In this document: positions 1 through 60,402 of the stretch, one piece after another
Numbering within the stretch: position 1 is the first letter of the stretch
Layout of the letters: each line of letters begins with the position of its first letter
Assembly: GCF_965641715.1 (NCBI RefSeq)
Contig: NZ_OZ282453.1
Length of the DNA stretch: 64,000 bases
Direction: 5' to 3' (one strand)
DNA from: Escherichia coli
GTDB taxonomy: Bacteria; Pseudomonadota; Gammaproteobacteria; Enterobacterales; Enterobacteriaceae
The notes under the pieces: model-generated
The model's input: only the letters and a program-made list of their open reading frames with translations
What the model was told of the DNA's origin: nothing
Database searches by the model: none
Position numbers and translations under genes: made by a program

Positions 1-243
1 TTTTCAACATAAAGCTGGCGACACATAATGCGATGCCCACGACAGCGACGAGTTGCGTGACGGCTTGTAAAGGCCCCGCCTGGCGACGGGTCTGGCGCAG
101 ACGCAACAAAAGCAGCAACGCCATTAGCGGTAACAGCCAGTGCAGGCCGTTATGCGCTAAGCCAAACCAAATCACAAACGGCCAGGCGAGCAGCAATAAT
201 CCAGTCAGCAGCTTAATCATCGGTAGCGAGCGAATGCCCGACA
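1..243 (-). CDS. Membrane protein, C-terminally truncated by window edge (ATG at 243..241, reads MSGIRSLPMIKLLTGLLLLAWPFVIWF...); next gene after the tandem ACPs in the same operon
   Basis: Manual translation of minus strand; hydrophobic; starts 5 bp downstream of ACP stop; not in ORF track because it has no stop inside the window. Confidence 0.4.
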
Positions 244-248
244 TCAGA

Positions 249-500
249 TCAGGCTTCTTGTAGCAGGCGTTCTACAGCCTCGACGACATCCTGGACTGTA
301 CGCACGGCTTTAAACTCTTCCGGCTTGATTTTCTTACCGGTTTTCTTTTGCAGGTGCACAATCATGTCAACGGCGTCGATGCTGTCCAGTTCCAGATCTT
401 CGTACAGGCGCGCTTCAGGTTTGATGTCCTGCGGATCGATTTCAAACAGCTTAACCAGCAGGGCTGAGACTTCCTGATAGACGGTTTGTTGTTCTGTCAT
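249..500 (-). CDS. Acyl carrier protein (83 aa)
   Basis: ORF track; ACP-like size and LDSIDAVD phosphopantetheine-attachment motif. Confidence 0.8.
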   Translation of the reverse strand: MTEQQTVYQEVSALLVKLFEIDPQDIKPEARLYEDLELDSIDAVDMIVHLQKKTGKKIKPEEFKAVRTVQDVVEAVERLLQEA

Positions 501-511
501 GATGGCTTTCC

Positions 512-769
512 TCAGGCACGTTGCGCAGCAATGAAAGAGGCCAGAGTGGCGACGGAGAAAAAGTGCTGACGCATCTCTTCGCTTTCCGCAGAGAGCACGA
601 TGCCGTACTCATTTTTTACTGCCAGTCCCAGTTCCAGGGCATCGATAGAGTCCAGCCCTAAACCGTCGCCAAACAGCGGCGCGTCGGTATCGATATCATC
701 AGGCGTCAACTCGTCCAGATTGAGGGTGCTGATGATGAGGTTTTTAATTTCCAGATAAAGCGCTTGCAT
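512..769 (-). CDS. Acyl carrier protein (85 aa), tandem with the first
   Basis: ORF track; GLDSIDALEL serine motif typical of ACPs. Confidence 0.8.
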   Translation of the reverse strand: MQALYLEIKNLIISTLNLDELTPDDIDTDAPLFGDGLGLDSIDALELGLAVKNEYGIVLSAESEEMRQHFFSVATLASFIAAQRA

Positions 770-1565
770 TATTTATTCCTGAGAGAGGTAAACAACCTTG
801 TTGTAATTGAAGCAAAAGATGCCGGTTTAACTGCCTTGCTGCCAGCGCCGGTTCTTGTGAAGTTGCATCGTAAAATTTATTGATTTCAACCCGACCATGG
901 ACTGCAACCGTAAAAAACGGCCGGTCAGGTGGAACGTCATACCATTTACTTTGTTTATCCAGCAGATGCTCGCTACAGCCGATCGTCACGATGCGTAAAT
1001 CGCTGGCACAGCGCACGGCAATATTCGCCGCCCCGCGCTGCAGCGTCATTTTTTCACCGGGCTTCGTTCGCGTGCCTTCGGGGAAAATCAGGATAGTGTC
1101 ACCCTGTGCCAGTCGCTGTTGGCAGCGGGGTAACAGGGTTTCAGCTTCGCTGTTGATTAAATAATCTGCCGCCCGCACGACGCCGCCAAGAAAAGGATTT
1201 TTTAACAGCGCGCTTTTCACCAGGCAGTCAGTTTCTGGCATGACTGACGCCAGCAGCACGTAATCGATCAGCGTGGGATGATTGGCTACGACGAGGCAAC
1301 CGCGTTCCTGACGTAAAATTTCAGCGCCATCAATACGATAATCCAGCACGCCAAGCCCTTTCGCGACAGTTAAAAACAGGCGAAAACTGGCGGCAATGCT
1401 GCGACGCGCCAAACGACGGCGGCGGGAAGTATCCCACACCAAAACTAACAATATGTTAAACCACACGACAGAAAGCAGCAGGCCGCCGAGACCAAACAGG
1501 GCAAAACATAACCCGGTCATGACCAGTCGCCAGGTCCACTCCAGACGTGACATCAGCTTACTCAT
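744..1565 (-). CDS. Lysophospholipid (PlsC-type) acyltransferase
   Basis: ORF 744..1583; N-terminal TM segments; HX4D-type motif VVANHPTLIDYVLL; alternative ATG at 1565 gives an ATGA overlap with the upstream stop. Confidence 0.75.
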   Translation of the reverse strand: MSKLMSRLEWTWRLVMTGLCFALFGLGGLLLSVVWFNILLVLVWDTSRRRRLARRSIAASFRLFLTVAKGLGVLDYRIDGAEILRQERGCLVVANHPTLIDYVLLASVMPETDCLVKSALLKNPFLGGVVRAADYLINSEAETLLPRCQQRLAQGDTILIFPEGTRTKPGEKMTLQRGAANIAVRCASDLRIVTIGCSEHLLDKQSKWYDVPPDRPFFTVAVHGRVEINKFYDATSQEPALAARQLNRHLLLQLQQGCLPLSGINNASALSGN

Positions 1566-2308
1566 CTGTGGCTCCAGCGCCATTGCACGCGCTCGCCAGG
1601 CAGTGAAAATGTGTCTACATTTTGTAAATAGTGCTGTAAAAACAACATGCTTTGCGGCAGTGTTGTTTCATTGCCCGCAATGGCTGACTGCGTTTCACAT
1701 TGCCAGTCATCGCCAGCTTCAATCACCAGCGCGACGGCGTACGGCCAGGTCGGCATTTCTGCAGGCAGTTGTGGGTGATAAAACTCGGGCAGAAAACCGT
1801 CAAAATCGACCATCAGCACGCGCTGGTATCCCGCTTGTAACAGGCTAAGCACTTCACACAAACCTTGCTGGAAAGTGTCGCGACCAGCAGAAAGCGATGA
1901 CGAAACGATCGGCTGTTTGGCCGCAATGGTCAGGTTACCCACGGAAGAGTTGTGTACTGAAAGTGCAAAGTCGGTCGGAGAAAGCGCCTGTTCGGTTGCC
2001 AGTGCATGAACAATGCGGTAATTGCGCTCCAGTTCGCCATGACGACTGGTATACAAAACGGCGTCTGGCTGATGGCGGCGTAGCATTGCCAGACCGCATT
2101 CAACAGCCAGTTTGCTGCCTGAACTGAGGCGGCGGGCGGTCATCATTGGCAGTTCACTTAATTTTGCCAACGGCGCGGCAGGGTCAATCGCCCACGGCTG
2201 GCGCGACCATGCTTGCCATTGCTGCGCTTCGCTAAGTCCAGGCGCCAGTGCCTGCCAGTCGGTAATATTTAATGTAAATTTCATCAACGCGCGCCCGCGG
2301 TAAACCAA
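1562..2308 (-). CDS. Small ketosynthase-like protein, possible chain-length-factor-type subunit (248 aa)
   Basis: ORF track; size and operon position between a methyltransferase and acyltransferase/ACPs; domain call is by recollection of aryl-polyene clusters. Confidence 0.45.
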   Translation of the reverse strand: MVYRGRALMKFTLNITDWQALAPGLSEAQQWQAWSRQPWAIDPAAPLAKLSELPMMTARRLSSGSKLAVECGLAMLRRHQPDAVLYTSRHGELERNYRIVHALATEQALSPTDFALSVHNSSVGNLTIAAKQPIVSSSLSAGRDTFQQGLCEVLSLLQAGYQRVLMVDFDGFLPEFYHPQLPAEMPTWPYAVALVIEAGDDWQCETQSAIAGNETTLPQSMLFLQHYLQNVDTFSLPGERVQWRWSHR

Positions 2309-2324
2309 AATTATTAAGTGACGA

Positions 2325-3392
2325 TTATTTCTTTTGGCATATCAAAAGTGTATGCCCAACGCCTAAATTATCGTGGCGCTCTGCTACCTGGAATCCTGCT
2401 TTATTCAGATAGTCGTAAAATTTCTCTGCACTATAGAAACGGCTGTTACCGTTTGCCATGCAGGTAAAATAAAGTGAGGACGCGTTCAGGCTAAACGATG
2501 CTGCTTCAAACCGCTGCGCATCCCAGAACAACTCCATGATGCAAACTTTTGCGCCAGGCTTCATTACGCTGGCAATTTTGCTGAGTATGCTAATTATTTG
2601 TTCGGGTGAAAAACAGTCTAAAAATTGGCTCATCCACCAGATATCAGCCTCGCCCGGTAATGGGGCATCGCTTAGCATATCCACCGCATGGAAATCTATG
2701 CGATCAGAAAAACCTGCATTCGCGATATTTTCTTTCGCTAGTACGATTTGTTGTGGCAGATCTAATAACGTCACGGCGATGTTTTCATTGTATTTGCAGC
2801 AACGCAAAGCCCACTTACCCGTATTACCGCCTACATCGTACAATGTTGTGGGGTTGTTGGCGAATACATAAGGCAGTGCGGCGTTAAATGCGCCATCTGA
2901 ATAGTAATGATCAAACGCAAACCAGCTTTCACGAGCGGCGTCTGGTAATTGCGAAAGTGCCGGATATATCGTCGACCAGTCGCCAAATACTTTTAACCCG
3001 GAAGGTTTTCCTTCATTGAGTGAATCGGCGAGGAAGAAGAGCCCCTGGTAACAGACATCCTGGGTGAAATCCATATTCACGCGAGTCATAGTGTCATGCA
3101 GGAGGTAATGACCGATTTTCGCCAGGTAATAAATTCCCTCTTTACAGGTAATAATTCGCCCGCTTAAGCCCATATCTAACAGAACGCTGGCAGCATATTC
3201 GTTGATATGGCTATGTTCGGTGATATCAGCCAGCGTTGCGCCATGTTTGCCTTGCCGATCCAGATATGAAAGTACACCCGCATTACGTAGGCAGAGTGCT
3301 GTTTGAAAAAGCATAGGGGCAAAGGCAATGCGTTGAGCTTCGGTAATCGCATCCAGTGCGCTAAGAGAATCCTGTTCGTACATGTTGGGCAC
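2325..3392 (-). CDS. Class I SAM-dependent O-methyltransferase
   Basis: ORF track; glycine-rich SAM-binding motif LYDVGGNTGKWA and acidic LLDLP motif. Confidence 0.8.
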   Translation of the reverse strand: MPNMYEQDSLSALDAITEAQRIAFAPMLFQTALCLRNAGVLSYLDRQGKHGATLADITEHSHINEYAASVLLDMGLSGRIITCKEGIYYLAKIGHYLLHDTMTRVNMDFTQDVCYQGLFFLADSLNEGKPSGLKVFGDWSTIYPALSQLPDAARESWFAFDHYYSDGAFNAALPYVFANNPTTLYDVGGNTGKWALRCCKYNENIAVTLLDLPQQIVLAKENIANAGFSDRIDFHAVDMLSDAPLPGEADIWWMSQFLDCFSPEQIISILSKIASVMKPGAKVCIMELFWDAQRFEAASFSLNASSLYFTCMANGNSRFYSAEKFYDYLNKAGFQVAERHDNLGVGHTLLICQKK

Positions 3393-3451
3393 AACCTGTT
3401 AAGAGGGAATTAAATTATTATCGGACCGCAACGGCCCGACTTTAGGAAGAA

Positions 3452-3829
3452 TTATAAATCTGCGCCCGCTGACAAATTCAGTTGAATATCTTTGTCGAGA
3501 TTGCGGACCCAGCGATTGTAGTTTTTATGAATTTGTCCGCCTGACGCTTGTAGGTTCTGGCTATTTTCATAATTGATATCGTAGCTGGATGCCGTGTAGT
3601 TAATGCGTATTTCCGCTGAATGATCGCGTGACTGTTGACGTGCTTTAATTATGCCTTGTCCGGCTTCGGACATAATCCATTTGCGTTCAACGCCAGCTTT
3701 CAGAATCGCTTTTTTCACTTGTTCCTGGGTATGACCAGCGCTGACGGTTGAGTGAACCTGATCAATTGGCGCAGTACGCGCGCAACCTGCTAAAGCACCC
3801 ACAACAGCAATAGCCGCAAACCATTTCAT
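3452..3829 (-). CDS. Predicted lipoprotein of unknown function
   Basis: ORF 3452..3841; internal start MKWFAAIAVVGALAGC gives a signal peptide with lipobox LAGC. Confidence 0.55.
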   Translation of the reverse strand: MKWFAAIAVVGALAGCARTAPIDQVHSTVSAGHTQEQVKKAILKAGVERKWIMSEAGQGIIKARQQSRDHSAEIRINYTASSYDINYENSQNLQASGGQIHKNYNRWVRNLDKDIQLNLSAGADL

Positions 3830-4159
3830 GTAATGTCTCATTAGAACCCCATTAAAGTATTGTTTTTACGAGTAAAGCAAGATTTAACTGTAATTGCTGG
3901 CATCACTATTCTTTATTTAGAGAAAAAATTACTTGTGAGATAAGTCAGTAAGTGCACATCAGAGTAAAAATCTCTGAAATGACTAAATTACTGCCAGCAG
4001 GGACCAACTATAAGTGAGTGAGAAAAATGAGGCAATAAAAATAACACAATGTTATCAGTGCATTCTTTGAGAAGGATTTAATCGCTATTCGGCGTTTATA
4101 TATATTTGACTTAAGGAATGGTTTTTTTAAATTAATTTTCTGAATAATGTTTCATCATT

Positions 4160-4202
4160 TCCTCAAATCAAATGGCCACTGTTAGATAAACGGTGGCCAT
4201 TG
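4160..4202 (-). terminator. Hairpin (GGCCAC..GTGGCC) immediately downstream of yhhT
   Basis: Inverted repeat aatggccactgttagataaacggtggccatt read directly. Confidence 0.45.
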
Positions 4203-4220
4203 CCTGCTCAGGAGGTGCTA

Positions 4221-5270
4221 TTAACCCGGTAACCGACTTTTCGGTCTGCCCGGCCCCAGTAAAATCGCCAGTTTGCTACCGCCTTTGGTGGTTTCCATCC
4301 AGATTTTACACACGCTGGTTAATGGCACCGAAAGTAGCATCCCTACCGGGCCGAGCAGCCATCCCCAAATTAACAATGAAAGAAATACCACCATGGTGGA
4401 CATCCCCAGGCGATGGCCCATCATCCGTGGTTCTAAAATATTGCCGATAACCATATGGACAACTAAAAACAATGCGCCGACCAGAATACATTCGTAAACA
4501 CCATTAAACAGCAGCACCTGAATCATTGGCGGTACGGCGGAAATTACCGCGCCGATATTGGGCACGTAGTTGAGCAAAAACGCCAGTACTGCCCACATCA
4601 GCGCAAACTGCACCCCCATCAGCTCCAGCCCCAGCCAGACGATGACACCTGCCCATAAACTGAGTAGCGTCTTCAATGCAAGATAGTGCGAAACACCTTT
4701 TAAGGCGCGGTGTAGTCCGGCGATATGAATCTGTGGATTATCCAATGCAAAACGCATTTTGTAAGGGACGTGGCGCACTTCAAACAGCATAAAAACTACG
4801 GTCATCACCAGCAAAAGCACGCTCGCCATTGCCCCGGAAAGCCCGGTCATTAGCGCTGTGGTGAAGGTAACCACTTTTTCCGAGTCCATCCGCTGCAGCA
4901 TTCGCTCCGGCGACATATGCAAATTAAGAAAAGGCAACATCTCCTGCAATTTAAAAAGTTTGCGCGTCAGCTCCTTATTAAACTTCGGCAGCATAGAGAT
5001 AAATTCGTTAAACGATGCCGCCAGTACGCCGACCAGCGCGGTTAGTGTGATCAGCATCACCACCACCACAATCGTAATGGCAACGGGGCGTTTTACTCCC
5101 CGTCGAATAAACCAGGTAACGAGCGGGTTGAGGACGATGGCAAAAAACAGCGCCAGTAACAGCTGCACAATGATATCTGCCGCTGCGTGAATGCCCGCGA
5201 GGATCACTACCAGCGAGGCCAGCTTGAGCAGAATGTGCATGCCCGTTTTATCGGGTTGAGGGGTTTCCAT
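4221..5270 (-). CDS. yhhT: AI-2E/PerM-family membrane transporter
   Basis: ORF 4221..5351; start METPQPDKTG chosen to match the 349-aa K-12 protein. Confidence 0.9.
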   Translation of the reverse strand: METPQPDKTGMHILLKLASLVVILAGIHAAADIIVQLLLALFFAIVLNPLVTWFIRRGVKRPVAITIVVVVMLITLTALVGVLAASFNEFISMLPKFNKELTRKLFKLQEMLPFLNLHMSPERMLQRMDSEKVVTFTTALMTGLSGAMASVLLLVMTVVFMLFEVRHVPYKMRFALDNPQIHIAGLHRALKGVSHYLALKTLLSLWAGVIVWLGLELMGVQFALMWAVLAFLLNYVPNIGAVISAVPPMIQVLLFNGVYECILVGALFLVVHMVIGNILEPRMMGHRLGMSTMVVFLSLLIWGWLLGPVGMLLSVPLTSVCKIWMETTKGGSKLAILLGPGRPKSRLPG

Positions 5271-8138: not shown

Positions 8139-8384
8139 ATGACCGATCTCTTTTCCAGCCCTGACCACACTCTCGACGCACTTGGCCTGCGCTGCCCGGA
8201 ACCCGTAATGATGGTGCGCAAAACAGTGCGCAATATGCAGCCAGGTGAAACGTTGCTGATTATTGCTGACGATCCGGCGACGACCCGCGATATCCCTGGG
8301 TTTTGTACCTTTATGGAACACGAACTGGTTGCCAAAGAGACGGATGGACTGCCTTATCGTTATTTGATTCGTAAAGGTGGTTAA
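8139..8384 (+). CDS. tusA: Sulfur carrier protein TusA
   Basis: 81 aa with CPxP motif (LRCPEPV). Confidence 0.95.
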
Positions 8385-8394
8385 GGTGGATCAC

Positions 8395-8525
8395 GGACTG
8401 TTACCCTAACCCTCTCCCCAGAGGGGCGAGTGGACCGATCGCACTCAATGTTGCTGCTTGAAACCGGTACGTAGGACGGATAAGGCGTTCACGCCGCATC
8501 CGGCAAGCAAGTGTAATGGAATACA
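8395..8525. repeat. REP-type intergenic palindromic repeats
   Basis: gtaggacggataaggcgttcacgccgcatccggcaagc and ccctctccccagaggggcgag palindromes. Confidence 0.55.
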
Positions 8526-8528
8526 CAA

Positions 8529-8837
8529 ATGGATTATTTAATTCCTGTTTGCCTGGGATTGCTGGGATTGTTCGCGATGTTCGCCCCCAATTGGCTGATG
8601 CCTGTTTTAATCGCCGTGGGGGGATGGCTGGTGGTACTTGCCTGTGGTTGGCTCTGGCTAATGATTTTTTTACCTTTACTTAACGGCGTCGGGCTTGCTT
8701 ATGCCCTGTGGTTGATGTTCAAAAGGCCATCATTCACGTCCCGCCTGGTTGCTACATGTTGTGTTATCTCCGTCATTCTGATGTTAGCGCTATATTACAC
8801 TTTCCTGACCATGCCACCGTTCCCGGCCCAGCACTAA
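8529..8837 (+). CDS. Hypothetical small membrane protein (102 aa); may be non-coding
   Basis: ORF track only; very hydrophobic; sits between convergent tusA and zntA. Confidence 0.2.
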   Translation: MDYLIPVCLGLLGLFAMFAPNWLMPVLIAVGGWLVVLACGWLWLMIFLPLLNGVGLAYALWLMFKRPSFTSRLVATCCVISVILMLALYYTFLTMPPFPAQH

Positions 8838-8869
8838 CCCTGATAGCCAGAGGCTATCAGGCAACACCT

Positions 8870-11068
8870 TTATTTCCTGCGCAACAACCTTAACGCATTC
8901 GCCGTTACCAGCACCGTCGCACCCGTATCTGCCAGCACCGCCAGCCATAGTCCGGTCATTCCTAACAGCGTGGTGACGAGGAAGATCCCTTTCAGCCCCA
9001 GCGCAATAGTGATGTTCTGGCGGATATTGGCGTGAGTGGCGCGTGCCAGTTCAATCATTTGCACCAGACCGCGCAGGTGGTTATGGGTTAATGCTGCGTC
9101 GGCGGTTTCCAGCGCCACGTCTGTGCCGCTGCCCATTGCAATCCCGATGGCGGCAGCTTTCATCGCTGGCGCGTCGTTAATACCGTCACCGACCATCGCC
9201 AGCGGCGCATGTTGATTCAGCTCGGTCACCGCTTTGACTTTATCTTCCGGCAACAGGCCCGCTTTAAACTCCAGCCCCAGCTCCCCGGCAATTGCCGCCG
9301 CTGCGCGTGGATTATCGCCGGTGAGGATCACCCCTTTGACGCCCAGCGCGTTCAGTTCACTGATGGCAGTTGCAGCATCGGCGCGCAGGGTATCCTGTAA
9401 CGCAATGACACCAAGCACGTCATCGTTACGTACTACCAGCACTACCGTTTGCCCGGCGCTTTCCAGTTCGTTAATTAAACCAGCAAATGCATCAGCGGGA
9501 TGTTTCCCGGCAGCGCAAATCAATACGCGCTCACCGTTAACCTGCGCTTCAATGCCAGACCCGACCAGCGCCCGCTGTGATTCGGCGGCGGGAATGGCGA
9601 GTGCAGCAACCTGTGCTTCGCGCACGATGGCCTGCGCCAGTGGATGCGTCGCGCCTTGCTCGACCGCCGCCGCCAGTGTCAGCAGTTCAGATTCACTAAT
9701 ACCCGTTGCCGGATGAATCGCGGTAACGCGCGGTTTACCGACGGTCAGCGTACCGGTTTTATCAAACGCCACCTGGGTAACACGACCTAGCTGCTCCAGC
9801 GCCGCACCGCCTTTAATTAACGCCCCACGACGTGCCGCTGCTGCCAGCCCGGAGGTAATCACCGCGGGCGTGGAGATAACTAACGCACACGGGCAGCCAA
9901 TCAGCAGCAGCGTCAGCCCTTTATAAATCCACTCCTGCCAGCTTGCGGCAAACAGCAGCGGCGGCACCAGCGTTACCAGCAGGGCGACGGCCATAATTGC
10001 TGGCGTATAAATGCGGCTGAAACGGTCGATAAACCGCTCAATGGGGGCGCGGCGCTCTTCGGCTTCTTCGATCAGTTTCAGAATCCGGTCAATGGCGCTG
10101 GCACCCGGTTCTGACAGCACTTCCAGCGTTACCAGACGGTCTACGCTGGTGGCGCCTGCAGGAACTTTATCGCCCGTCGCGCGCTCCACCGGAATGGATT
10201 CTCCGGTCAGGGCGCTTTCATCAAAACTGGCAAACGGTGAGAGCAGTTTACCGTCGGCAGGCAAACGCCCACCTGCGGCGACTTCAATCACATCGCCAGG
10301 GCGCAGGCTGTTAATCGCCACCTCTTCCCGCTCACCGTTACGCAGGCGCGTGGCGGTTTCTGGTTTCAGCGCCATTAACGCGCTAACGCCCTGACGCGCG
10401 CGGCTGGCGGCCCAGCCTTCCAGTCGTTCACCAATCAAAAACAGCAGCAACACCATCGCAGCTTCAGCCGTTGCGCCAATAAACAGCGCACCAATAGCAG
10501 CTACGCTCATTAAGGTTTCAATGGCGAAGTAGCTGCCGGATTTGATCAGCCGTAATGCCTGACGAGCAATCGGGTACAGCCCAACCAGCGTGGTCGCGAT
10601 AAACGCCAGTTGCCCGAACGGATGATTGAACTGCTCCAGACCCCAGCTGATTGCCATCATCACGATTAGCGTAATCAGCGGCAGATTCTCTTTCAGGCGC
10701 GATTCTTGTGGCTCGTCGGCGGCCTGCTCATCGCGCAGGGAATAGCCCGCTTTTTGCACCGCAGATTCAACCTGGGCACGGATGTCATTGTCGGCATCAA
10801 CCACCAGTTTTTCGGTGGCGAACAGTACCTGCACCTGATTCACGCCTGCAAGCTGGCGCACGGCATTTTCTACCTTGCGCGCACAGGCGGCGCAGTCCAT
10901 GCCGCTGACTTTCCAGCTATAGCGGGTGCCGGAGACGTTTTCAGAGAGCGTTGGCGTGCTGGAACATGCGCCGTCGCAGCAACAGTCGTTGGCGTTCTGT
11001 ACCGTGGTTAGCGGTTTGAACGCAGCAAATTGAGGGGCTTTCTTGCCGTGATTGTCAGGAGTCGACAT
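8870..11068 (-). CDS. zntA: Zn/Cd/Pb-exporting P1B-type ATPase
   Basis: 732 aa; CxxC metal-binding motif (GMDCAAC), CPC, DKTGT phosphorylation site, GDGINDAP. Confidence 0.97.
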   Translation of the reverse strand: MSTPDNHGKKAPQFAAFKPLTTVQNANDCCCDGACSSTPTLSENVSGTRYSWKVSGMDCAACARKVENAVRQLAGVNQVQVLFATEKLVVDADNDIRAQVESAVQKAGYSLRDEQAADEPQESRLKENLPLITLIVMMAISWGLEQFNHPFGQLAFIATTLVGLYPIARQALRLIKSGSYFAIETLMSVAAIGALFIGATAEAAMVLLLFLIGERLEGWAASRARQGVSALMALKPETATRLRNGEREEVAINSLRPGDVIEVAAGGRLPADGKLLSPFASFDESALTGESIPVERATGDKVPAGATSVDRLVTLEVLSEPGASAIDRILKLIEEAEERRAPIERFIDRFSRIYTPAIMAVALLVTLVPPLLFAASWQEWIYKGLTLLLIGCPCALVISTPAVITSGLAAAARRGALIKGGAALEQLGRVTQVAFDKTGTLTVGKPRVTAIHPATGISESELLTLAAAVEQGATHPLAQAIVREAQVAALAIPAAESQRALVGSGIEAQVNGERVLICAAGKHPADAFAGLINELESAGQTVVLVVRNDDVLGVIALQDTLRADAATAISELNALGVKGVILTGDNPRAAAAIAGELGLEFKAGLLPEDKVKAVTELNQHAPLAMVGDGINDAPAMKAAAIGIAMGSGTDVALETADAALTHNHLRGLVQMIELARATHANIRQNITIALGLKGIFLVTTLLGMTGLWLAVLADTGATVLVTANALRLLRRK

Positions 11069-11102
11069 GGCATCCTCCGGTTAAGTTTTTTCTCATTAAC
11101 CG

Positions 11103-11136
11103 AAGGATACACTCTGGAGTCGACTCCAGAGTCAAG
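11103..11136 (-). promoter_or_regulatory. zntA promoter with ZntR (MerR-type) operator
   Basis: Perfect 22-bp palindrome ACTCTGGAGTCGACTCCAGAGT (11111..11132) between -35 TTGACT and a -10-like element, giving long MerR-type spacing. Confidence 0.8.
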
Positions 11137-11141
11137 TTTTA

Positions 11142-11768
11142 TCAGAGATACAGCGAGCGGACGATGAGGAAGTGACCGGCAAAGTAGCAGGCCGCAGCAA
11201 TCGCGTTATCCGCACGGAAGCGTCGGCGATAGTGGCTACCCAGCCAGACAAAGTTACTGATAAACAGCAACGAAGCGCCGACAAACGCGGAGAGCGCCGG
11301 AGCGGTCGGACGGAAGAACCACAGTTCACCTGCCAGCCACACCATCACCAGCGTCATGCCGATAAACGTGCAGATGGGCCAACGATACTCTTCCAGCCGC
11401 GTCCAGATAATCGCCAGTAACAGCGCGCCCAGAACCAGCAGTACCAACGGCAGAGGCCAGAAGAAAGAGAGCGTCATCTGACTGGCGAAATAGATGGTGT
11501 ACAGCAGGTGCGAGAGGAAAAACGCGCCGATGGCGTACATCAGACGTTGACGTGGCAACAGGGTTAGCGCATCGCCCAGCAGTGAGGCGCACAGCCCCGC
11601 CAGCACCAGATAGCTAATGGCGTCGAACATCGGCGCTTGCCAGGCCAGTAACAACAGGAGAAGAAGGGTTAACGGTTTAAACACCCAGCGTTGCCAGGTT
11701 GGCCCACGATACGATGCATCCACAGATAGCCATGCGGAAAGACAGACAGCGATAAACGACCAAAGCAT
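11142..11768 (-). CDS. yhhN: YhhN/TMEM86-family membrane protein
   Basis: 208-aa polytopic membrane ORF; position conserved upstream of zntA. Confidence 0.85.
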
Positions 11769-11908
11769 CTTAGTTCCTTGAATTCGTTATTTTTTCGTAG
11801 GCGGAATGCCTACGGTCTTGCTTCCAGTTTAGTGGCGAGGGTGGACGGATGACAACACCATAACTGGCAGGGTATGCTTAATTCCGCATTTTCCGATGAG
11901 GGATAAAG

Positions 11909-12268
11909 ATGAGCAAACCACCTCTTTTCTTTATTGTTATCATTGGCTTAATCATCGTCGCCGCATCGTTTCGTTTTATGCAACAGCGACGGGAAAAAGC
12001 TGATAATGATATGGCACCGCTCCAGCAAAAGCTGGTGGTGGTGAGCAACAAGCGGGAAAAACCGATTAACGATCGCCGTTCGCGCCAGCAGGAAGTGACT
12101 CCGGCAGGCACCAGTATGCGCTATGAGGCAAGCTTCAAACCGCAAAGCGGAGGAATGGAGCAGACGTTTCGCCTCGACGCCCAGCAGTACCACGCCCTGA
12201 CAGTGGGCGATAAAGGTACGCTGAGCTATAAAGGAACGCGCTTTGTTAGCTTTGTTGGCGAACAATAA
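11909..12268 (+). CDS. yhhM: DUF2500-family protein
   Basis: 119 aa with N-terminal TM segment; synteny. Confidence 0.8.
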   Translation: MSKPPLFFIVIIGLIIVAASFRFMQQRREKADNDMAPLQQKLVVVSNKREKPINDRRSRQQEVTPAGTSMRYEASFKPQSGGMEQTFRLDAQQYHALTVGDKGTLSYKGTRFVSFVGEQ

Positions 12269-12270
12269 GG

Positions 12271-12540
12271 TTATTTTTTAACTTTAAATTTCTTCTGCCA
12301 GACCAGCAGTTCAAACACGCCGAAAAGGAAAATCCGCACCTTTTCGGCGGTGGTCATCTGCGGGCCATCTTTCGGTAAAGTGGATTTCAATAGCGCCAGC
12401 TGCATACCATGCATCAGCACGGTAAAAATCAGCGCCACGTTAACGAAGATATTCAGCGGGCGTGGGAAGGGATGCACCAGGTTGAGGATTAAAAATCCCC
12501 AAACGCAGAGCATTAACAAACGACCAATATTAATCAGCAT
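12271..12540 (-). CDS. yhhL: DUF1145-family small membrane protein
   Basis: ORF 12271..12663; internal start MLINIGRLLML gives 89 aa; 11-bp overlap with rsmD. Confidence 0.75.
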   Translation of the reverse strand: MLINIGRLLMLCVWGFLILNLVHPFPRPLNIFVNVALIFTVLMHGMQLALLKSTLPKDGPQMTTAEKVRIFLFGVFELLVWQKKFKVKK

Positions 12541-13126
12541 CACTTTCTCCTTGTGCTTCGCGTTGATACAGCCGATAAGCCACCTGACCCGCCACTTTTT
12601 CCCGATGTAATGACCAGTTTGCCGGAACAGTGGGCAGACCGTTTTCGACTTCGCTTTCGACATAAATCAGGGCTTCGTCAGCCAGCCAGCCGTTATCTTC
12701 CAGTAAATTTATCGTCTCTTCTAACAAGCCACGGCGGAACGGTGGATCGACAAACACGATATTATGCGGTGTGCCTTTTTGCGCCAGGAATGACATCGCG
12801 TTGCTGTTCACCACGCGTGCATTGCCTGCTTTTAGTGTCGCCAGATTCTTAATTAACTGCTGAGAAACCGCGCGATCCATCTCAATCAACGTGGCCCCCG
12901 CAGCGTAGCGTGATAACGCTTCCAGTCCCAGCGCGCCGCTTCCGGCGAAGCAATCCAGACATTGGGCGTCAACAATGACCGGAGCCAGCCAGTTAAACAA
13001 CGTTTCGCGTACGCGGTCGGTGGTGGGGCGCAGACCTGGGCTATCAGGAACCGGGAGTTTACGGCCTCGCCACTGCCCGCCAATAATGCGGATTTGGCCG
13101 CTGCCGGAATGATTCGGTTTTTTCAT
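12530..13126 (-). CDS. rsmD: 16S rRNA m2G966 methyltransferase
   Basis: 198 aa; DPPF motif (VFVDPPFRRG); divergent from ftsY. Confidence 0.9.
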   Translation of the reverse strand: MKKPNHSGSGQIRIIGGQWRGRKLPVPDSPGLRPTTDRVRETLFNWLAPVIVDAQCLDCFAGSGALGLEALSRYAAGATLIEMDRAVSQQLIKNLATLKAGNARVVNSNAMSFLAQKGTPHNIVFVDPPFRRGLLEETINLLEDNGWLADEALIYVESEVENGLPTVPANWSLHREKVAGQVAYRLYQREAQGESDAD

Positions 13127-18967: not shown

Positions 18968-18985
18968 CGGATAGATAAATGAAAA

Positions 18986-19019
18986 TGCCCGATGCGCTTA
19001 ACGTCCATCGGGTTTTTTT
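18986..19019 (+). terminator. Rho-independent terminator of livJ
   Basis: Hairpin gcccgatgcgcttaacgtccatcgggt plus T-run. Confidence 0.7.
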
Positions 19020-19116
19020 ATGTTTGTCGAAATGGTTGTAGAAAGATTAAACAATCCAGGATATGCTTATTGTACGGTGATGTGCCGTACATATTATACG
19101 GAGCAGGAGAGTTCAC

Positions 19117-19383
19117 ATGTCTGCTGTTAAAAAGCAGCGTATCGATCTGCGTTTAACTGACGATGACAAAAGTATGATTGAGGAAGCGGCAGCGATATCT
19201 AATCAGTCCGTCAGCCAATTTATGTTGAACAGCGCTTCGCAGCGGGCTGCGGAAGTGATTGAACAGCATCGGCGGGTGATCCTCAATGAGGAATCCTGGA
19301 CGCGGGTGATGGATGCGCTGAGTAATCCACCGTCACCAGGTGAAAAGCTAAAACGTGCGGTAAAACGTCTTCAGGGAATGTAA
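19117..19383 (+). CDS. ataR: DUF1778-type antitoxin of a GNAT toxin-antitoxin pair (88 aa)
   Basis: Small protein immediately upstream (6-bp gap) of a GNAT gene; symbol assigned from memory of the O157:H7 AtaR-AtaT locus. Confidence 0.7.
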   Translation: MSAVKKQRIDLRLTDDDKSMIEEAAAISNQSVSQFMLNSASQRAAEVIEQHRRVILNEESWTRVMDALSNPPSPGEKLKRAVKRLQGM

Positions 19384-19389
19384 TAATTT

Positions 19390-19917
19390 ATGGATGATCT
19401 GACGATAGAGATTCTGACCGATGATGCAGATTATGATCTACAGCGATTCGACTGCGGCGAGGAAGCGTTAAATCTCTTTCTGACGACACATCTCGTTCGT
19501 CAACATCGCAACAAAATTCTGCGAGCGTATATCCTTTGTCGCAACACTCCAGAACGTCAGGTGCTGGGATATTACACATTATCCGGCAGTTGTTTTGAAC
19601 GAGCCGCATTGCCCTCGAAATCGAAACAGAAAAAAATTCCCTACAAAAATATTCCCAGCGTCACTCTTGGGCGTCTGGCAATTGATCGTTCATTACAGGG
19701 GCAGGGATGGGGAGCAACACTGGTTGCTCATGCCATGAAAGTCGTCTGGTCAGCCTCTTTAGCGGTAGGTATTCACGGTCTTTTTGTCGAGGCGCTGAAT
19801 GAAAAAGCCCATACGTTTTATAAATCGCTGGGCTTTATCCCTTTAGTCGGGGAAAACGAAAATGCGTTATTTTTCCCAACCAAATCCATTGAACTGCTTT
19901 TTACACAGAGCGATTAA
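19390..19917 (+). CDS. ataT: GNAT-family tRNA-acetylating toxin (175 aa)
   Basis: GNAT acetyl-CoA motif region (QGQGWGATLV); paired with upstream antitoxin-like gene. Confidence 0.7.
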   Translation: MDDLTIEILTDDADYDLQRFDCGEEALNLFLTTHLVRQHRNKILRAYILCRNTPERQVLGYYTLSGSCFERAALPSKSKQKKIPYKNIPSVTLGRLAIDRSLQGQGWGATLVAHAMKVVWSASLAVGIHGLFVEALNEKAHTFYKSLGFIPLVGENENALFFPTKSIELLFTQSD

Positions 19918-34066: not shown

Positions 34067-34351
34067 TCAGGGCAAGCCGAAGGTAGCCTTTTTTATTTCG
34101 TAATCCTGTAGATATTCTTCCAGCGGCTTTGCCGTTCCCAGAGAATGAATTTCACCACTGTCTTTATCAATAATAAAAGGTGCGTTACCAGCTAAGCGCG
34201 CGGCCTCATCTCCAGTTTCGAGAAATTCTCGTGCTTCGAAACAGAAATACCAGCCCTGGCTAAAGCGTCCATGTAGAGTAATGACGACCGGGAGATCTGC
34301 ATCATCAAGGTAATGGTTCGCTTTCGCGAATGCGTCGTGATAAGTAATCAT
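34067..34351 (-). CDS. yrhB: YrhB-family small protein (immunity-like)
   Basis: 94 aa; matches recalled K-12 YrhB. Confidence 0.8.
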   Translation of the reverse strand: MITYHDAFAKANHYLDDADLPVVITLHGRFSQGWYFCFEAREFLETGDEAARLAGNAPFIIDKDSGEIHSLGTAKPLEEYLQDYEIKKATFGLP

Positions 34352-34800
34352 AATTATAATAAATATTATTGTTGAATGTTATATTATTATTCCTGTGTGA
34401 TACATTGAGCAAAGGTGCATTCATCTTCGTCAAAGATATTATTAAATGCTGGTTTTGAAAAAAGTTCATCGGATAAGATATAGTCACGAAATAAGTATCT
34501 GCTAATATTTTGTGATTTCTTTTTCAGAACGTCGAACGGGATTTTCTTATTTAAGATATCAGAATCTTATGATTTGGGTAAAATTCTAAATAAATCAACA
34601 TGTCACTAAAATCATCATAGCCATTAGCTATTTCGGCTAAAATAGAGACTACATGTCTTCGGTCCATCTCACTTAAGGAGTGTAGTTCCGTTGTAAGTTT
34701 TTCCATAGCTTGCATTGCTAAATTTCGAACAAGGAATTTTCTGGTGGTAATCTCTAAAAAGATGGCATGGTTTACAATGATTTTTGTTTCCTTTTGATTA

Positions 34801-35295
34801 TTATGAACAACTATCCATGATTTCGTTTAAGAATGAAGAGAAATCACTAAACGAACTGAATATATTTTCTGTGCCAATATTATCTCTAATTTCAAAAAAG
34901 TTACTTTTAATGTCATAAGTAAATATTGAAATGCTATCATCCCCGATCACTAACCGTTCTTGTAGATCAGGGTTTATGAAATCATCATTATTTCTATAAA
35001 ATTCATTTACGGCAAAAAGGTTTTTAACTGAAGGTTCTGGAATCGAGAGGCTAAATAATCGCAATCCATTAACTTCGAATCCATCCATTGCTCTTAAAAA
35101 AGTAAGATAATCAGGTTGATTCTTAAAAAGAATACTAACTTCATTACATAACTTCTCCAGGCAATTAGTTGAATTAGAATTAAATTCTATTTGGATTATA
35201 CTTTCAATAAATGATTCCTTGAGCGGTGCTTCAAATGGATAGTCTAAATCATTCATCATTTTTATTAATTTGTTTATTTGGGTTTTAGTCATCAT
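34801..35295 (-). CDS. yrhA: Putative immunity protein for the upstream HNH toxin domain (YrhA-like), intact here
   Basis: 164 aa; start overlaps the toxin ORF stop by 4 bp; low-GC gene. Confidence 0.6.
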   Translation of the reverse strand: MMTKTQINKLIKMMNDLDYPFEAPLKESFIESIIQIEFNSNSTNCLEKLCNEVSILFKNQPDYLTFLRAMDGFEVNGLRLFSLSIPEPSVKNLFAVNEFYRNNDDFINPDLQERLVIGDDSISIFTYDIKSNFFEIRDNIGTENIFSSFSDFSSFLNEIMDSCS

Positions 35296-36470
35296 TTTGT
35301 GGGTTCCATAATATTTTTCATGGGAGGATAAATTGAGCCAGATGGAATGGCCCAGGGAGTGATTTTGCTTTCACCTACTAATATTCCCTTAGCTATTCGT
35401 GATTGCATGTTAGTAAAAACTTTATGATATGGTTCGTTTTCGATTAATACTAAATTTTCGAAATCATTAGTACCACCATCATCTAGAGATAGTTTATGGT
35501 GAACATTATAATTTAGAGGAACATAGCCCTTTCTCATTCTTAAAAGGTCTTCGGTGTTGAATCTTCCAGATGCTTCGGAGGTTTTTGCAAGTTTGATAAG
35601 AAAATTTTTTCTTACAGTTTTGTTAAACTCCTTTCGTAAGTTAGCTAAGTCTTTTGAAGGTCTCTTAATGTATATTATTTATATTATGTCTATGCCATCA
35701 AGAAGTTTTTGTTGATCTCTAAGTTTGCCTAAGTAACTATTTATTTCTGTATATGTATCAACTTTAGAACGCTTTGTTAAAAGAATAGATGCTGTTGCTA
35801 TCGCTATGCCCGCTGTTTTTTCATTTAGTATTTGATCATAGCCTTTGATTGCATCTCCACCCAGTTTTTCCGCAGTATCTCTGAATCCTTCAATGTTCCC
35901 ATTGTATACGCCACCAGCAGCAAGTAGCCTGCCAACAGCTTTGCTGTTTAACGTTTTGAAACGATTATTTGTTTGGTTTTTTGAATTTGGTAAAAACAAA
36001 CGGTTATAATTTTCAGGGAGTGCCAAATAGCTGAACTCGGTATTTGCGATAAGATGTTGACAGAGGATAAATTCATAACTAACAGTTATTGTTTCTGTAT
36101 CCAGTTGATTTTGAATGATCTGATGATGAATAGCCGATAAAAAAGCGCCTCTTAGTTGTGTATAATAATACTTTTCCCATCTACCAAATCTATTGATTCT
36201 ATAAAAGTCAAATTTCATAAATAATTGCTCATTATTGTTAATGGAATTAATAAGTAATGGAGTGCTTTTATCAATTAATTTACAAAATGTCATAGCCTGT
36301 AACTGTGAACCAAGCCCCGTATTAGTAATTCTATTTTCGAGTGAGAATGTAAATATTTCATTCTCATGCCCGCTCTGCCAGCGATTACCTATAGATTCAG
36401 TAGTCCCACAACCTGCGGAGATGCTTCCTTGTTGTTCTCCCGTTACTGTCAGATAAACAATATTACTCAT
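35292..36470 (-). pseudogene. yhhZ: Hcp-domain protein fused to a C-terminal HNH nuclease toxin (yhhZ-like), interrupted by one in-frame TAA at 35679..35681
   Basis: 263-aa ORF with Hcp-like N-terminus; same frame continues after the single stop through 47 codons into the 81-aa HNH ORF (NVHHKLSLDDGGTNDFENLVLIENEPYH); 392 codons in total. Confidence 0.65.
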
Positions 36471-36706
36471 CCCTGAAAAGTCCTTTTATGGCATGCTATT
36501 TTATCAATGGCACTATTATGCTTGTTAATTGTTATTTATTTACTCCAGGAAATTGTAGGCGTATATATTAAAAAATAAAATATTACACTTTAGGAAGTAA
36601 TTATGAGGTAAGTCTCAATATATTTATTGGGAAAATAAATACATTAAAGGAAGGTATGCCGATTTTGAATGACACCCTTTTTCCATCTCAGAAAAAGGGC
36701 ACTATT

Positions 36707-37195
36707 TTACTTCACCCGCGCCATAAAATACGCATCAACATATTCACCATTACGTAATGCGTACTTCTTGCCAGTCCCTTCAATCTCAAAGCCGAATTTT
36801 TTATAGACCTTAATTGCTGGCGCGTTATCGACAAACACCGTTAGCTCAATACGATCTACCCGCAACCAGTTGTCGCACATTTCAATCATCTCTCGCATCA
36901 GGGCGCTGGCGACGCCGCGATTCTTCCAGCGGGCGTCGACACAGATACCAAAATCGGCAACATGACTGCGGCGTGGGCGCTGTTGCACGTCAATGGTGAG
37001 ATGGCCCACGACGTCTCCATCAATACAGGCGACGAGTTGCTTGATGCCGGGACGATTGGCGAGTCGCTCCTGCCACATATAATCGGAAGGATGAGGCACT
37101 TGTAGCGTGTTGTAATACACCTCCGGCTGGGCGTGAATCTGCCTGATGGCCTCGTAATCGCGCGTTTCAGCATGGCGTATCACTATCTCACTCAT
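36707..37195 (-). CDS. yhhY: GNAT-family N-acetyltransferase
   Basis: ORF 36707..37273; start MSEIVIRHAE gives 162 aa. Confidence 0.85.
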   Translation of the reverse strand: MSEIVIRHAETRDYEAIRQIHAQPEVYYNTLQVPHPSDYMWQERLANRPGIKQLVACIDGDVVGHLTIDVQQRPRRSHVADFGICVDARWKNRGVASALMREMIEMCDNWLRVDRIELTVFVDNAPAIKVYKKFGFEIEGTGKKYALRNGEYVDAYFMARVK

Positions 37196-37316: not shown

Positions 37317-37409
37317 GCGATCAGGAAGACCCTCGCGGAGAACCTGAAAGCACGACATTGCTCACATTGCTTCCAGTATTACTTAGCCAGCCGGGTGCTG
37401 GCTTTTTTT
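37317..37409 (+). ncRNA. ryhB: RyhB small RNA (Fur-repressed iron-sparing sRNA) with intrinsic terminator
   Basis: Matches recalled RyhB sequence GCGATCAGGAAGACCCTCGCGGAGAACCTGAAAGCACGACATTGCTCACATTGCTTCCAGTATTACTTAGCCAGCCGGGTGCTGGCTTTTTTTTT. Confidence 0.92.
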
Positions 37410-37528
37410 TTGATCTTTCGTTCTCAATTTATCCTCGGGAAGTGCTTGTGTTCGTTATGCGCACTCCAGTAGGAACCACGTCCGCTTTGCGCTAAGGTGT
37501 AAATAACCACCTTAAAAAGGACGAAATC

Positions 37529-42613: not shown

Positions 42614-42625
42614 TTACTGCGACAA

Positions 42626-42670
42626 ATTACTGCGAGCTTGCTCGCAGTAATTCATTTCTCTTTTCTCCTC
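42626..42670 (+). terminator. Rho-independent terminator after gntU
   Basis: Hairpin attactgcgagcttgctcgcagtaat followed by T-rich tract. Confidence 0.65.
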
Positions 42671-42752
42671 TCTTCATCTTTTTGATCTCTCTCGCAAATT
42701 TACCTGCAAATAATCCGTTCTAATCACTGCCTAAAGATCGCAGGAGATAAAG

Positions 42753-44849: not shown

Positions 44850-46051
44850 TGAATCTTTCAGCCAATGCACAAGCAACTCTCCTGCTAACCAGCGATTTTT
44901 CTCGCGCGGCGGCGAGTGAGTATAAACCTCTTAGTAATAGTGAATGGGGGAAGTTTGCATTATGGCTGAAGCACCAACGTATCAGTCCCGCCGAGCTTCT
45001 GGTGCCGCAACCGCAAGAGAAACTTACAGGCTGGAGCGATCCGCGTATTTCTCAGGAGCGTATTCTTGGCTTGCTGGCGCGTGGTCATAGTCTGGCGTTG
45101 GCGGTAGATAAGTGGCAACGCGCCGGTTTATGGATCTTAACCCGCGGAGATGCTGATTATCCCGTTCGCTTGAAAAACCGATTGCGAACGGATGCACCTC
45201 CCGTTTTATTTGGCTGCGGGAATAAAGCATTACTGCAAGCGGAAGGTATGGCGATTGTTGGCTCGCGAGATGCTCCGACTGACGATTTGCGCTATACCCA
45301 ACAACTGGCCGCGAAACTGGCCCAACAGGGGATTTGCGTTATCTCTGGTGGTGCGCGAGGTATTGATGAATGTGCAATGGCGTCGGCACTGGAGGCCGGG
45401 GGAACTGCCGTTGGCGTATTAGCTGATAGCTTGTTAAAAACGAGTACGTTAGTGAAATGGCGTGAAGGGCTTATAGCAGGCAACCTGGTGTTGATTTCGC
45501 CGTTTTACCCAGAGGTACGTTTCACCGTCGGCAATGCGATGGCGCGAAATAAATATATTTATTGCCTTGCTGAAAGCGCAATGGTTGTACGTGCGGGAAT
45601 GACCGGTGGAACGATAACCGGGGCGATGGAGGCATTAAAACATCAGTGGCTGCCTGTGCAGGTTAAACCAAATCAGGATATGCAATCAGCCAATTCACGA
45701 TTAGTAGAAAATGGGGCGTCATGGAGTGCTGAACAGGCTGAGAATGTGACGATCAGACTGCCAGACGTTCCTGGGCTGATGTATGACAGAGCACTCCGTA
45801 ACGCTCAACCAGAACTGTTTTCGCTGCATGAAGATGACGCAAATTACGCAGTAATGCCCGCGTATACGCCTGTCGATTTTTATCAACTCTTTGTGGCGGA
45901 ACTGGCGATCCTTGCAAAGGAATCGATAAGTATTGAAAGGCTGGCGTCTTGTACTGGTTTAACCATCGAACAAATTAGTGTGTGGCTGAACCGCGCAGAA
46001 GAAGAGGGAAGGGTTATCCGATTGGGCGAAGGTCATTATCAGTTCAGGTAA
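44849..46051 (+). CDS. DprA/Smf-like (SLOG Rossmann) protein with C-terminal winged helix (400 aa); candidate antitoxin/partner
   Basis: ORF 44756..46051; ATG at 44849 overlaps upstream stop (TGATG); DprA-like GSRD and ISGGARGID motifs. Confidence 0.75.
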   Translation: MNLSANAQATLLLTSDFSRAAASEYKPLSNSEWGKFALWLKHQRISPAELLVPQPQEKLTGWSDPRISQERILGLLARGHSLALAVDKWQRAGLWILTRGDADYPVRLKNRLRTDAPPVLFGCGNKALLQAEGMAIVGSRDAPTDDLRYTQQLAAKLAQQGICVISGGARGIDECAMASALEAGGTAVGVLADSLLKTSTLVKWREGLIAGNLVLISPFYPEVRFTVGNAMARNKYIYCLAESAMVVRAGMTGGTITGAMEALKHQWLPVQVKPNQDMQSANSRLVENGASWSAEQAENVTIRLPDVPGLMYDRALRNAQPELFSLHEDDANYAVMPAYTPVDFYQLFVAELAILAKESISIERLASCTGLTIEQISVWLNRAEEEGRVIRLGEGHYQFR

Positions 46052-46096
46052 TAAAACAGGTGCCGCGTCTGGTTGTGTGCAGCACCTGTTTGAACC

Positions 46097-59260: not shown

Positions 59261-59285
59261 CGCTCGAGAGAAAGGAATCAGCGAG

Positions 59286-60278: not shown

Positions 60279-60402
60279 TGATGAATATAATCAGACTTTA
60301 TATTTATCCGTTATTTCTCGGCTTTGTTATTGTGCCGTTGTTGGTGTGGCCGATGGTGGTTGCGCTGGCTGCTTGTATTATCGTTGACAAAGTGCACTTT
60401 GT

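Follow-up and report, generated by a model that had tools for sequence, protein, structure and literature searches.

An AT-rich spacer beside yhhT in Escherichia coli as the probable control region of an ancestral aryl-polyene operon deleted in K-12

The DNA that follows yhhT in some Escherichia coli genomes raises the question of whether a markedly AT-rich stretch marks the point at which an island entered the chromosome, or whether it belongs to the genes that it precedes. An earlier note on this DNA had taken the stretch to be the likely boundary of horizontally acquired DNA and a possible target of H-NS-type silencing. We followed up this proposal in a window of 64,000 nucleotides, that is, the whole stretch of E. 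coli DNA that was analysed (contig NZ_OZ282453.1), and all positions given below refer to it. Our reading is that the stretch is probably the regulatory spacer of an ancestral 18-gene aryl-polyene (APE) operon that has been deleted in K-12. Both the locus and its polymorphism have already been described; what we worked out here is the exact position of the breakpoints, the promoter call and the synteny in outgroups.

The AT-rich intergenic region (3842..4220, minus-strand orientation) measures 379 bp and reaches from the stop codon of yhhT (4221-4223, minus strand) to the ATG at 3841-3839 of the next minus-strand gene. An ORF search of 3842-4220 revealed none longer than 27 amino acids and an Rfam search of the same positions, at E-values up to 1, returned no match, which bears out the earlier description of a non-coding stretch of roughly 380 bp. 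The GC content is 33.2% versus 51.4% for the window. When GC was calculated along the window in sliding 379-bp segments, equally low values were found in 2.7% of them, confined to three places, and among the 30 intergenic gaps mapped from the annotation this gap ranked fourth lowest. TA steps occur at a frequency of 0.090 compared with a window mean of 0.045, corresponding to the 97th percentile. Five runs consisting of A and T only, 8–18 nt each, are present in 3842-4220, and the string that had been quoted as an example of the poly-A/T tracts, tttatatatatttgac, was located at 4095-4110; the claim of marked AT-richness with such tracts was thus accurate. The AT-richness of this stretch is beyond chance, and similar levels are also seen in ordinary core regulatory DNA. 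Within the window, the regulatory spacer between panM and livK, which is core DNA, spans 423 bp with 33.3% GC, as compared with 391 bp (mapped from the annotation) and 33.2% for the gap between yhhT and apeA. The two differ in their distribution, since the panM/livK spacer could be mapped to each of the two E. coli genomes compared, whereas the yhhT/apeA spacer is present in approximately 10% of E. coli genomes.

The genes that lie beyond the spacer are all encoded on the minus strand. The first is an apeA-like lipoprotein gene (3452..3841; 129 amino acids, lipobox LAGC), and it is followed by an apeB-like gene for a SAM-dependent O-methyltransferase (2325..3383), an apeC-like chain-length factor (1562-2284), an apeD-like acyltransferase (744-1565), two acyl carrier proteins (512-769 and 249-500) and the end of an apeG-like gene (1-244). 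As the annotation reference we used E. coli PapRG-04-4, which is 99.9% identical over the queried region; its annotation lists 18 genes in one direction, of which the lipoprotein gene is the first and a ketosynthase gene the last; acpT comes next, and a single base separates its start from the ketosynthase stop codon (TGA-T-ATG). The 18 genes encode, in turn, a lipoprotein, a methyltransferase, a chain-length factor, an acyltransferase, two acyl carrier proteins, a hypothetical protein (at the COG4648 position), an AMP-ligase, a dehydratase, a glycosyltransferase, a thioesterase, a LolA-like protein, an MMPL protein, a DUF3261 protein, a ketosynthase, the ApeP dehydratase, FabG and a further ketosynthase, an arrangement that matches apeA-R of the CFT073 aryl polyene cluster gene for gene (Table 1 in PMC8253772). 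Model matches obtained with the genes in the window were to an FlxJ-family methyltransferase (below the curated cutoff), Ketoacyl-synt_2, an acyltransferase (below the cutoff) and an acyl carrier protein. By its gene content, the cluster is an operon of the aryl-polyene type. Production of the aryl polyene pigment-lipid has been demonstrated for the CFT073 paralogue, and the O157:H7 carrier proteins served by AcpT were treated in the same study as homologues of ApeE/F (PMC8253772). Judged by locus and sequence, the cluster is also O-island 138 of O157:H7: the island of EDL933 (Z4850-Z4861) occupies the same place between yhhT and acpT and differs in nothing substantive, and the O157:H7 spacer is 99.7% identical to that of the window. 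Toward the spacer the GC content declines, from 54% in apeC to 46% in both apeB and apeA and 33% in the spacer.

Given the hairpin at the end of yhhT and the conserved Shine-Dalgarno sequence of the next gene, the promoter of the operon must lie in the spacer. A promoter scan identified a sigma-70-like candidate at 4007..4035 on the minus strand, composed of a -35 element TTGCCT (4035-4030), a 17-bp spacer and a -10 element TATAGT (4012-4007). It agrees with the consensus at 9 of 12 positions and is the sole promoter-like site on the cluster strand in the window; the scan yielded two promoter-like sites, compared with 1.5 ± 1.3 in shuffled sequences. Seven species of Klebsiella and Citrobacter, the spacers of which are divergent, carry TTGATA-17-TATACT in the same alignment columns, and variants at the aligned promoter include TTGATG in C. 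gillenii and the -10 element TATAGT in C. amalonaticus S646. A pair of -35 and -10 elements in these columns and with the fixed 17-bp spacing was observed in 9 of the 25 species (from Escherichia, Klebsiella and Citrobacter), and at the same threshold 16 of the 25 showed no positionally conserved promoter. The candidate also lies inside the longest block shared without any difference by E. coli and Escherichia sp. E1V33; this block spans 53 columns of a spacer that differs in 10.6% of its columns overall; we estimate that an identical block of this length has a roughly 0.1 chance of arising at 10.6% divergence. Taken as a promoter call from sequence, this site has moderate support, with a predicted transcription start near 4000. 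The predicted 5' leader (3842..4000, minus strand) would be approximately 160 nt long and contains a Shine-Dalgarno sequence GGGG at 3847..3850 (minus strand), which reads GGAG in other genera and stands 5 nt before the ATG at 3841. A TGAT-A-GGAG-N5-6-ATG block is nearly invariant in an alignment of 19 species, and its conservation points to 3841 as the start codon of the apeA-like gene, which RefSeq starts four codons further downstream, at 3829.

Other candidate control elements were rejected. CRP-like sites numbered four across the 25 spacers, against 5.2 ± 2.3 in shuffles, and do not form a conserved element; a perfect TGTGA-N6-TCACA was noticed in Citrobacter sp. MGH106, 105 nt upstream of the ATG. 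An operator-like inverted repeat just upstream of the -35 element, ATAACA-N3-TGTTAT, is not conserved outside Escherichia, and the spacer contains two 6-bp inverted repeats where 2.2 ± 2.1 are expected by chance. The spacer between yhhT and apeA measures 294–711 bp and has 30–41% GC in all 24 species measured. The presence of a long AT-rich spacer in every one of them argues that this composition belongs to the control region of the operon, and it speaks against the view that AT-richness marks a junction.

On the other side of the spacer, yhhT (4221..5270, minus strand) encodes an AI-2E family transporter of 349 amino acids, according to its translation and the RefSeq annotation of the 99.9%-identical genome, and terminates with TAA at 4221-4223. 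The earlier note had described a perfect hairpin directly after this gene; the hairpin is real, and it proved to be near-perfect, with one mismatch position, and to start 19 nt past the stop codon. Folding localized the stem-loop to 4171..4201 on the minus strand, followed by UGAUUUGAGG (4170-4161). Its arms (4171-4183 and 4189-4201) form a 13-bp stem that encloses a 5-nt loop (4184-4188), and the single non-Watson-Crick position reads T.G on the plus strand and C.A in the yhhT sense. Read in the latter sense, the stem has six G-C pairs and a free energy of -16.3 kcal/mol, versus -22 kcal/mol in the plus sense. The stem-loop is invariant across five E. coli genomes, and in Escherichia sp. E1V33 two changes convert the C.A position to C-G and one G-C pair to G.U. 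Most other genera in the 19-species alignment have a short CTACC/GGTAG hairpin and a T-run directly after yhhT; as read from this alignment, Escherichia has swapped the short hairpin for the 13-bp one. A simple terminator scan did not call the stem-loop, the U-tract of which is interrupted. The structure is probably an intrinsic terminator of yhhT.

The breakpoint relative to K-12-type genomes was placed at 4224..4225, with similarity to K-12 extending from 4225 rightward. Position 4225 falls within the last Gly codon of yhhT, and the gene ends in GGT TAA here versus GGA TGA in K-12. In a Megablast search, the matches in approximately 4,850 genomes begin at query position 926, which is 4225 of the window. 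Of 5,426 complete E. coli genomes, 569 contain the entire region, each of them once on the chromosome and at 95–100% identity, and 4,856 have the K-12-type junction, in which acpT lies 54 bp from yhhT; the two classes sum to 5,425. The variable segment amounts to 15,393 bp here versus 38 bp in K-12, and the AT-rich spacer lies wholly within this segment and straddles no junction. At the other end, K-12 keeps 20 bp upstream of acpT that represent the last codons and the stop codon of the final ketosynthase gene of the cluster. A filler of 34 bp is specific to K-12; it has no match anywhere in the island, and its local alignment with the ketosynthase tail scored no better than shuffles. At the Citrobacter junction, the alignment hints at about 12 more bases derived from the ketosynthase, and the resemblance extends to approximately 32 bp in some Citrobacter. 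The earlier note would have been refuted by the presence of the same, contiguous sequence in K-12, and this is not what we found: similarity resumes at 4225, the stretch forms the edge of a 15.4-kb presence/absence segment, and K-12 lacks it. For annotation, the yhhT-side edge of O-island 138 can now be fixed at 4224/4225 and the start of the apeA-like gene corrected to 3841.

A second, relocated form of the cluster is available for comparison. APE_Ec of CFT073 (apeA-R, c1204-c1186; PMC8253772) has the identical gene order and shows 91.5% nucleotide identity over positions 89-3748 of the window, a stretch of approximately 3.7 kb that corresponds to c1199-c1204. The encoded proteins are 94% (ApeB, c1203), 95% (ApeC) and 64% (ApeA, c1204) identical to those of the window, and the GC gradient is alike, with the lowest value in the upstream spacer, then apeA/apeB, and a higher one in apeC. 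Unlike the cluster in the window, the CFT073 copy has no adjacent acpT and is located elsewhere, beside two-partner secretion pseudogenes; its upstream spacer (515 bp, 37% GC) is unrelated in sequence, and the homology ends inside apeA at 3748. Approximately 255 further genomes match at 80–90% identity, and the one such genome that was inspected carries its copy in the same kind of setting as CFT073, at another locus and next to two-partner secretion pseudogenes.

ChIP-seq data for CFT073 (PMC9765446, Data set S1A) gave average H-NS IP/input values of 17.21 for c1204 (apeA) and 7.72 for c1203 (apeB), on a scale on which leuO scores 15.8, and values of 1.65 for c1202 (apeC) and 0.5–1.2 for the other cluster genes examined. 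Both c1204 and c1203 were flagged as H-NS bound and assigned to class IV (RNAP strong), which comprises genes that are bound by H-NS and still transcribed, for example leuL (PMC9765446). The stretch resembles such H-NS-bound, AT-rich promoter-proximal regions in that AT-rich, TA-step-rich regulatory DNA stands ahead of a GC-richer operon body, and its homologues apeA/apeB of CFT073 belong to class IV; one difference is that the high-affinity H-NS motif is missing from the copy in the window. In composition the stretch suits H-NS, with 66.8% AT and TA steps at the 97th percentile. The high-affinity nucleation motif is said to be tCGATAAATT, as Lang et al. reportedly described in 2007. Searching with TCGATAAATT and allowing up to two mismatches, we found no occurrence in 2627-4995 and 93 matches window-wide. 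The GC gradient shared with the CFT073 cluster makes occupancy of approximately 2300-4220 likely, and by this analogy we lean, by a modest degree, toward H-NS being present there in this copy also, bearing in mind that the upstream spacer of the CFT073 paralogue is unrelated in sequence to that of the window. If so, H-NS would form a promoter-proximal patch on a transcribed operon and would not silence a foreign island. Of the earlier suggestion of H-NS-type silencing, the binding is plausible in view of the AT content, the TA steps and the bound apeA/apeB of CFT073, but silencing is too strong a term for genes that fall into class IV and are expressed in EDL933.

Evidence for that expression comes from an rpoS microarray study, in which the genes of O-island 138 were detectable in EDL933 (log2 3–9) and increased 2–6-fold in the rpoS mutant. 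Its authors ascribed RpoS-negative regulation in general to sigma-factor competition, and an increase explained in this way fits a sigma-70 promoter. In a host-cell co-culture microarray, Z4853 and Z4854 were up 2.2–2.5-fold with host epithelia. A literature search by Z- and ECs-numbers retrieved only the rpoS and host-cell co-culture microarrays for these genes.

How does the proposal of a control region compare with that of an insertion junction, in which the AT-richness would reflect the foreign origin of a horizontally acquired island and H-NS would silence the whole cluster? Such an origin could explain why the cluster is patchy in E. coli and absent from K-12, and why the stretch is rich in AT and TA steps; the H-NS-bound state of the homologous apeA/apeB in CFT073 is in keeping with it, the truly relocated second copy in approximately 255 genomes demonstrates that the cluster can move, and an island-free junction common to several genera leaves room for re-acquisition. 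We nevertheless consider an insertion junction unlikely on the basis of a wider comparison, in which a one-genome-per-species scan with YhhT yielded 80 enterobacterial loci, which were retrieved as stretches of 10 kb. The cluster is the immediate downstream neighbour of yhhT in 29 of these 80 species loci, which belong to at least 11 genera (Escherichia, Citrobacter, Klebsiella, Lelliottia, Leclercia, Enterobacter, Huaxiibacter, Silvania, Atlantibacter, Kosakonia and Pluralibacter), and its divergence is core-like: the identity to the window proteins is 64–98% for the lipoprotein, 73–99% for the methyltransferase and 67–96% for the chain-length factor, and it tracks that of YhhS/YhhT (77–99%). 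The cluster has 55.4% GC, which is close to its flanks (53–57%) and above the window mean, the only low values being those of apeA/apeB (46%) and the spacer (33%). No tRNA was found over 26 kb, the annotation from nikA to yhhS contains neither an integrase nor a transposase, no direct repeat of at least 8 bp is common to both junctions and no phage similarity was found; a mobile-element origin of the spacer was likewise rejected, as the plasmid collection gave a lone match, to a record of 4.9 Mb that is apparently a chromosome. The target site in island-free genomes is scarred, and the 20-bp ketosynthase remnant in K-12-type genomes points to deletion. Moreover, the same long AT-rich spacer is seen wherever the cluster occurs, and H-NS binding in CFT073 is confined to the first two genes, where RNAP is strong. 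The synteny, the GC content, the lack of integration hallmarks and the ketosynthase remnant together leave the earlier view of this DNA as horizontally acquired unsupported.

Two other accounts concern the spacer itself. An unannotated small RNA, riboswitch-like leader or leader peptide could control the operon from within it, and the unusual length of the leader (approximately 160–200 nt in Escherichia, Klebsiella and Citrobacter) and a conserved block that lies some 30 nt before the ATG (CGTATAAACAATAC...TGATAGGGAG) would be in agreement with such an element. We regard this as highly improbable, because the leader displays no significant or conserved secondary structure (folding z-score -0.62; RNAalifold consensus energy -0.07 kcal/mol with four predicted pairs), which together with the empty Rfam search led us to reject a structured leader or riboswitch, because its ORFs do not exceed 27 amino acids, and because CRP-like sites and short inverted repeats are no more frequent than chance predicts. 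The spacer could also be functionless DNA that became AT-rich through relaxed, mutation-biased drift; the little sequence conservation between genera outside the promoter and Shine-Dalgarno blocks and the more than twofold range of spacer lengths could be read in this manner. That account is very hard to credit, given that low GC and a length of at least about 300 bp have been kept in all 24 species despite the turnover of sequence, that the region is 95–100% identical across the 569 Escherichia genomes, and that the promoter of the operon has to be located in it.

The comparison across species therefore leads us back to an ancestral cluster that was subsequently lost. Different, independent deletions were observed in Enterobacter, where E. 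cloacae M-7 keeps 42 ketosynthase codons right after yhhT and E. asburiae carries an internal deletion. Escherichia, Salmonella and Citrobacter have homologous island-free junctions, and the sharing of this junction by three genera implies that the deletion allele is old. From these sequence comparisons we prefer the repeated loss of an ancestral cluster to its import. A 2006 article by De Lay and Cronan is said to describe AcpT as orphaned in K-12, and its title agrees with the loss of an ancestral cluster. Homologous recombination could have brought the full cluster back into the 10% of E. coli that carry it, which would be horizontal transfer but would involve no insertion at the junction. 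The "island" may be recast as an ancestral enterobacterial cluster that was lost by deletion and not gained by import.

Within the preferred reading, that of a regulatory spacer of an ancestral operon, the parts of the stretch can be put in order along the minus strand. The stem-loop and its U-rich tail would probably end the yhhT transcript; then would come approximately 130 bp of AT-rich DNA upstream of the promoter, the sigma-70-type promoter TTGCCT-17-TATAGT that would drive the operon, an unstructured, AT-rich leader of approximately 160 nt, and lastly the Shine-Dalgarno sequence and the ATG at 3841. The AT-rich spacer together with apeA/apeB (46% GC) would be a likely loading zone for H-NS, which would dampen transcription and not abolish it. 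In K-12, an old deletion would have begun at the yhhT stop codon and ended 20 bp or more short of the 3' end of the last ketosynthase gene, orphaning acpT. The promoter and the terminator that we propose are both testable.

In the island-free junction, the yhhT stop codon is followed by drifted sequence of approximately 35 bp, after which come the ketosynthase tail and acpT, and full clusters with the divergence typical of their genus are found beside yhhT in some Escherichia and some Citrobacter. It is conceivable, though doubtful in our estimation, that the yhhT-acpT interval holds a very old presence/absence polymorphism. If true, this would require either the long-term upkeep of both alleles or a repeated exchange of the full or the empty allele via homologous recombination in the conserved flanks, and an AT-rich promoter loaded with H-NS would make the full allele cheap to carry. 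Nothing in our finding would surprise a specialist. Since the regulation of aryl polyene clusters is poorly understood, the conserved position of the predicted promoter and the binding of H-NS at the 5' end of the homologous operon may nonetheless serve as a starting point.

The start of the apeA-like lipoprotein gene, on the minus strand, bounds the 379-bp spacer (3842-4220) that separates it from yhhT. RefSeq places the start at position 3829, giving a product of 125 aa. Because a Shine-Dalgarno sequence and an ATG are conserved in 19 species, we put the start at position 3841, with a product of 129 aa; this is also the annotated length of the CFT073 homologue, c1204. Two observations were made on the corresponding spacer in Citrobacter. 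Citrobacter sp. MGH106 (comparison locus L029, ~11390) has a perfect CRP consensus, TGTGAAATAGATCACA, 105 nt 5' of the ATG of the apeA-like gene; this consensus was not conserved in the spacers of other species. In C. amalonaticus S646 (L046, 11047-11759), the spacer measures 711 bp, its expansion being due to an insert that is GC-rich and palindromic, looks REP/ERIC-like and is located downstream of the conserved promoter.

The lowest GC content of the window, down to 28.8%, was localized to a block at 34128-36913 that holds yrhB, yrhD, yrhA and an Hcp-like tssD gene. Within it, near-matches to the H-NS motif number about a dozen, so that on sequence grounds this block is a stronger candidate for H-NS binding than the yhhT-apeA spacer (3842-4220). 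The sole Rfam match above the gathering score across the window is the small RNA RyhB at 37346-37410 (RF00057, 83 bits).

Other variable segments were located in the window. Between gntU and yhgN, a 3.5-kb segment (42614-46096) codes for a RecQ-family helicase as well as a DprA-like protein; 1,641 of the 5,426 complete E. coli genomes surveyed carry it, and it is missing from the otherwise closest genome. The ataT-ataR module, a GNAT toxin/antitoxin pair at 18968-19913, lies between livJ and panM, and occurs in 1,612 of the 5,426 genomes. An insertion of ~415 bp between tusA and zntA (8383-8869) contains a 102-aa membrane-like ORF (8529-8837) together with a multi-copy repeat sequence that occurs at a median of 20 places per genome and looks REP-like; only 143 genomes have the full-length insertion at this site. 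The interval between glgP and glpD (57752-60382) is occupied by two genes of the PstS family and one hypothetical gene. As the hypothetical gene, 603 nt long, was matched in the window over only 105 nt, the comparison suggests that it is truncated here relative to E. coli PapRG-04-4.

Some 255 E. coli genomes carry a second aryl-polyene cluster, with matches at 80-90% identity. That of CFT073 (L089) is 91.5% identical to the window, and in both examples examined, CFT073 and an ATCC 25922-type strain (L088), the second cluster adjoins pseudogenes of a two-partner secretion system. Its homology to the window extends only as far as position 3748, within apeA; identity is only 64% for ApeA, against 94-95% for ApeB and ApeC.

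At the island-free junction, the yhhT stop codon is followed by ~35 bp, a ketosynthase tail and acpT. This arrangement is homologous across Escherichia, Salmonella and Citrobacter (junctions L004-L007, L015-L018, L035, L037, L041 and L043), and despite its being common to these genera, some Escherichia and some Citrobacter still keep the full cluster. Within Enterobacter the cluster has decayed independently: in E. cloacae M-7, 42 ketosynthase codons are left directly 3' of yhhT (L048, 11051-11176), and in E. asburiae an internal deletion has joined the early genes directly with the final ketosynthase gene and acpT (L021, ~10900-12560).
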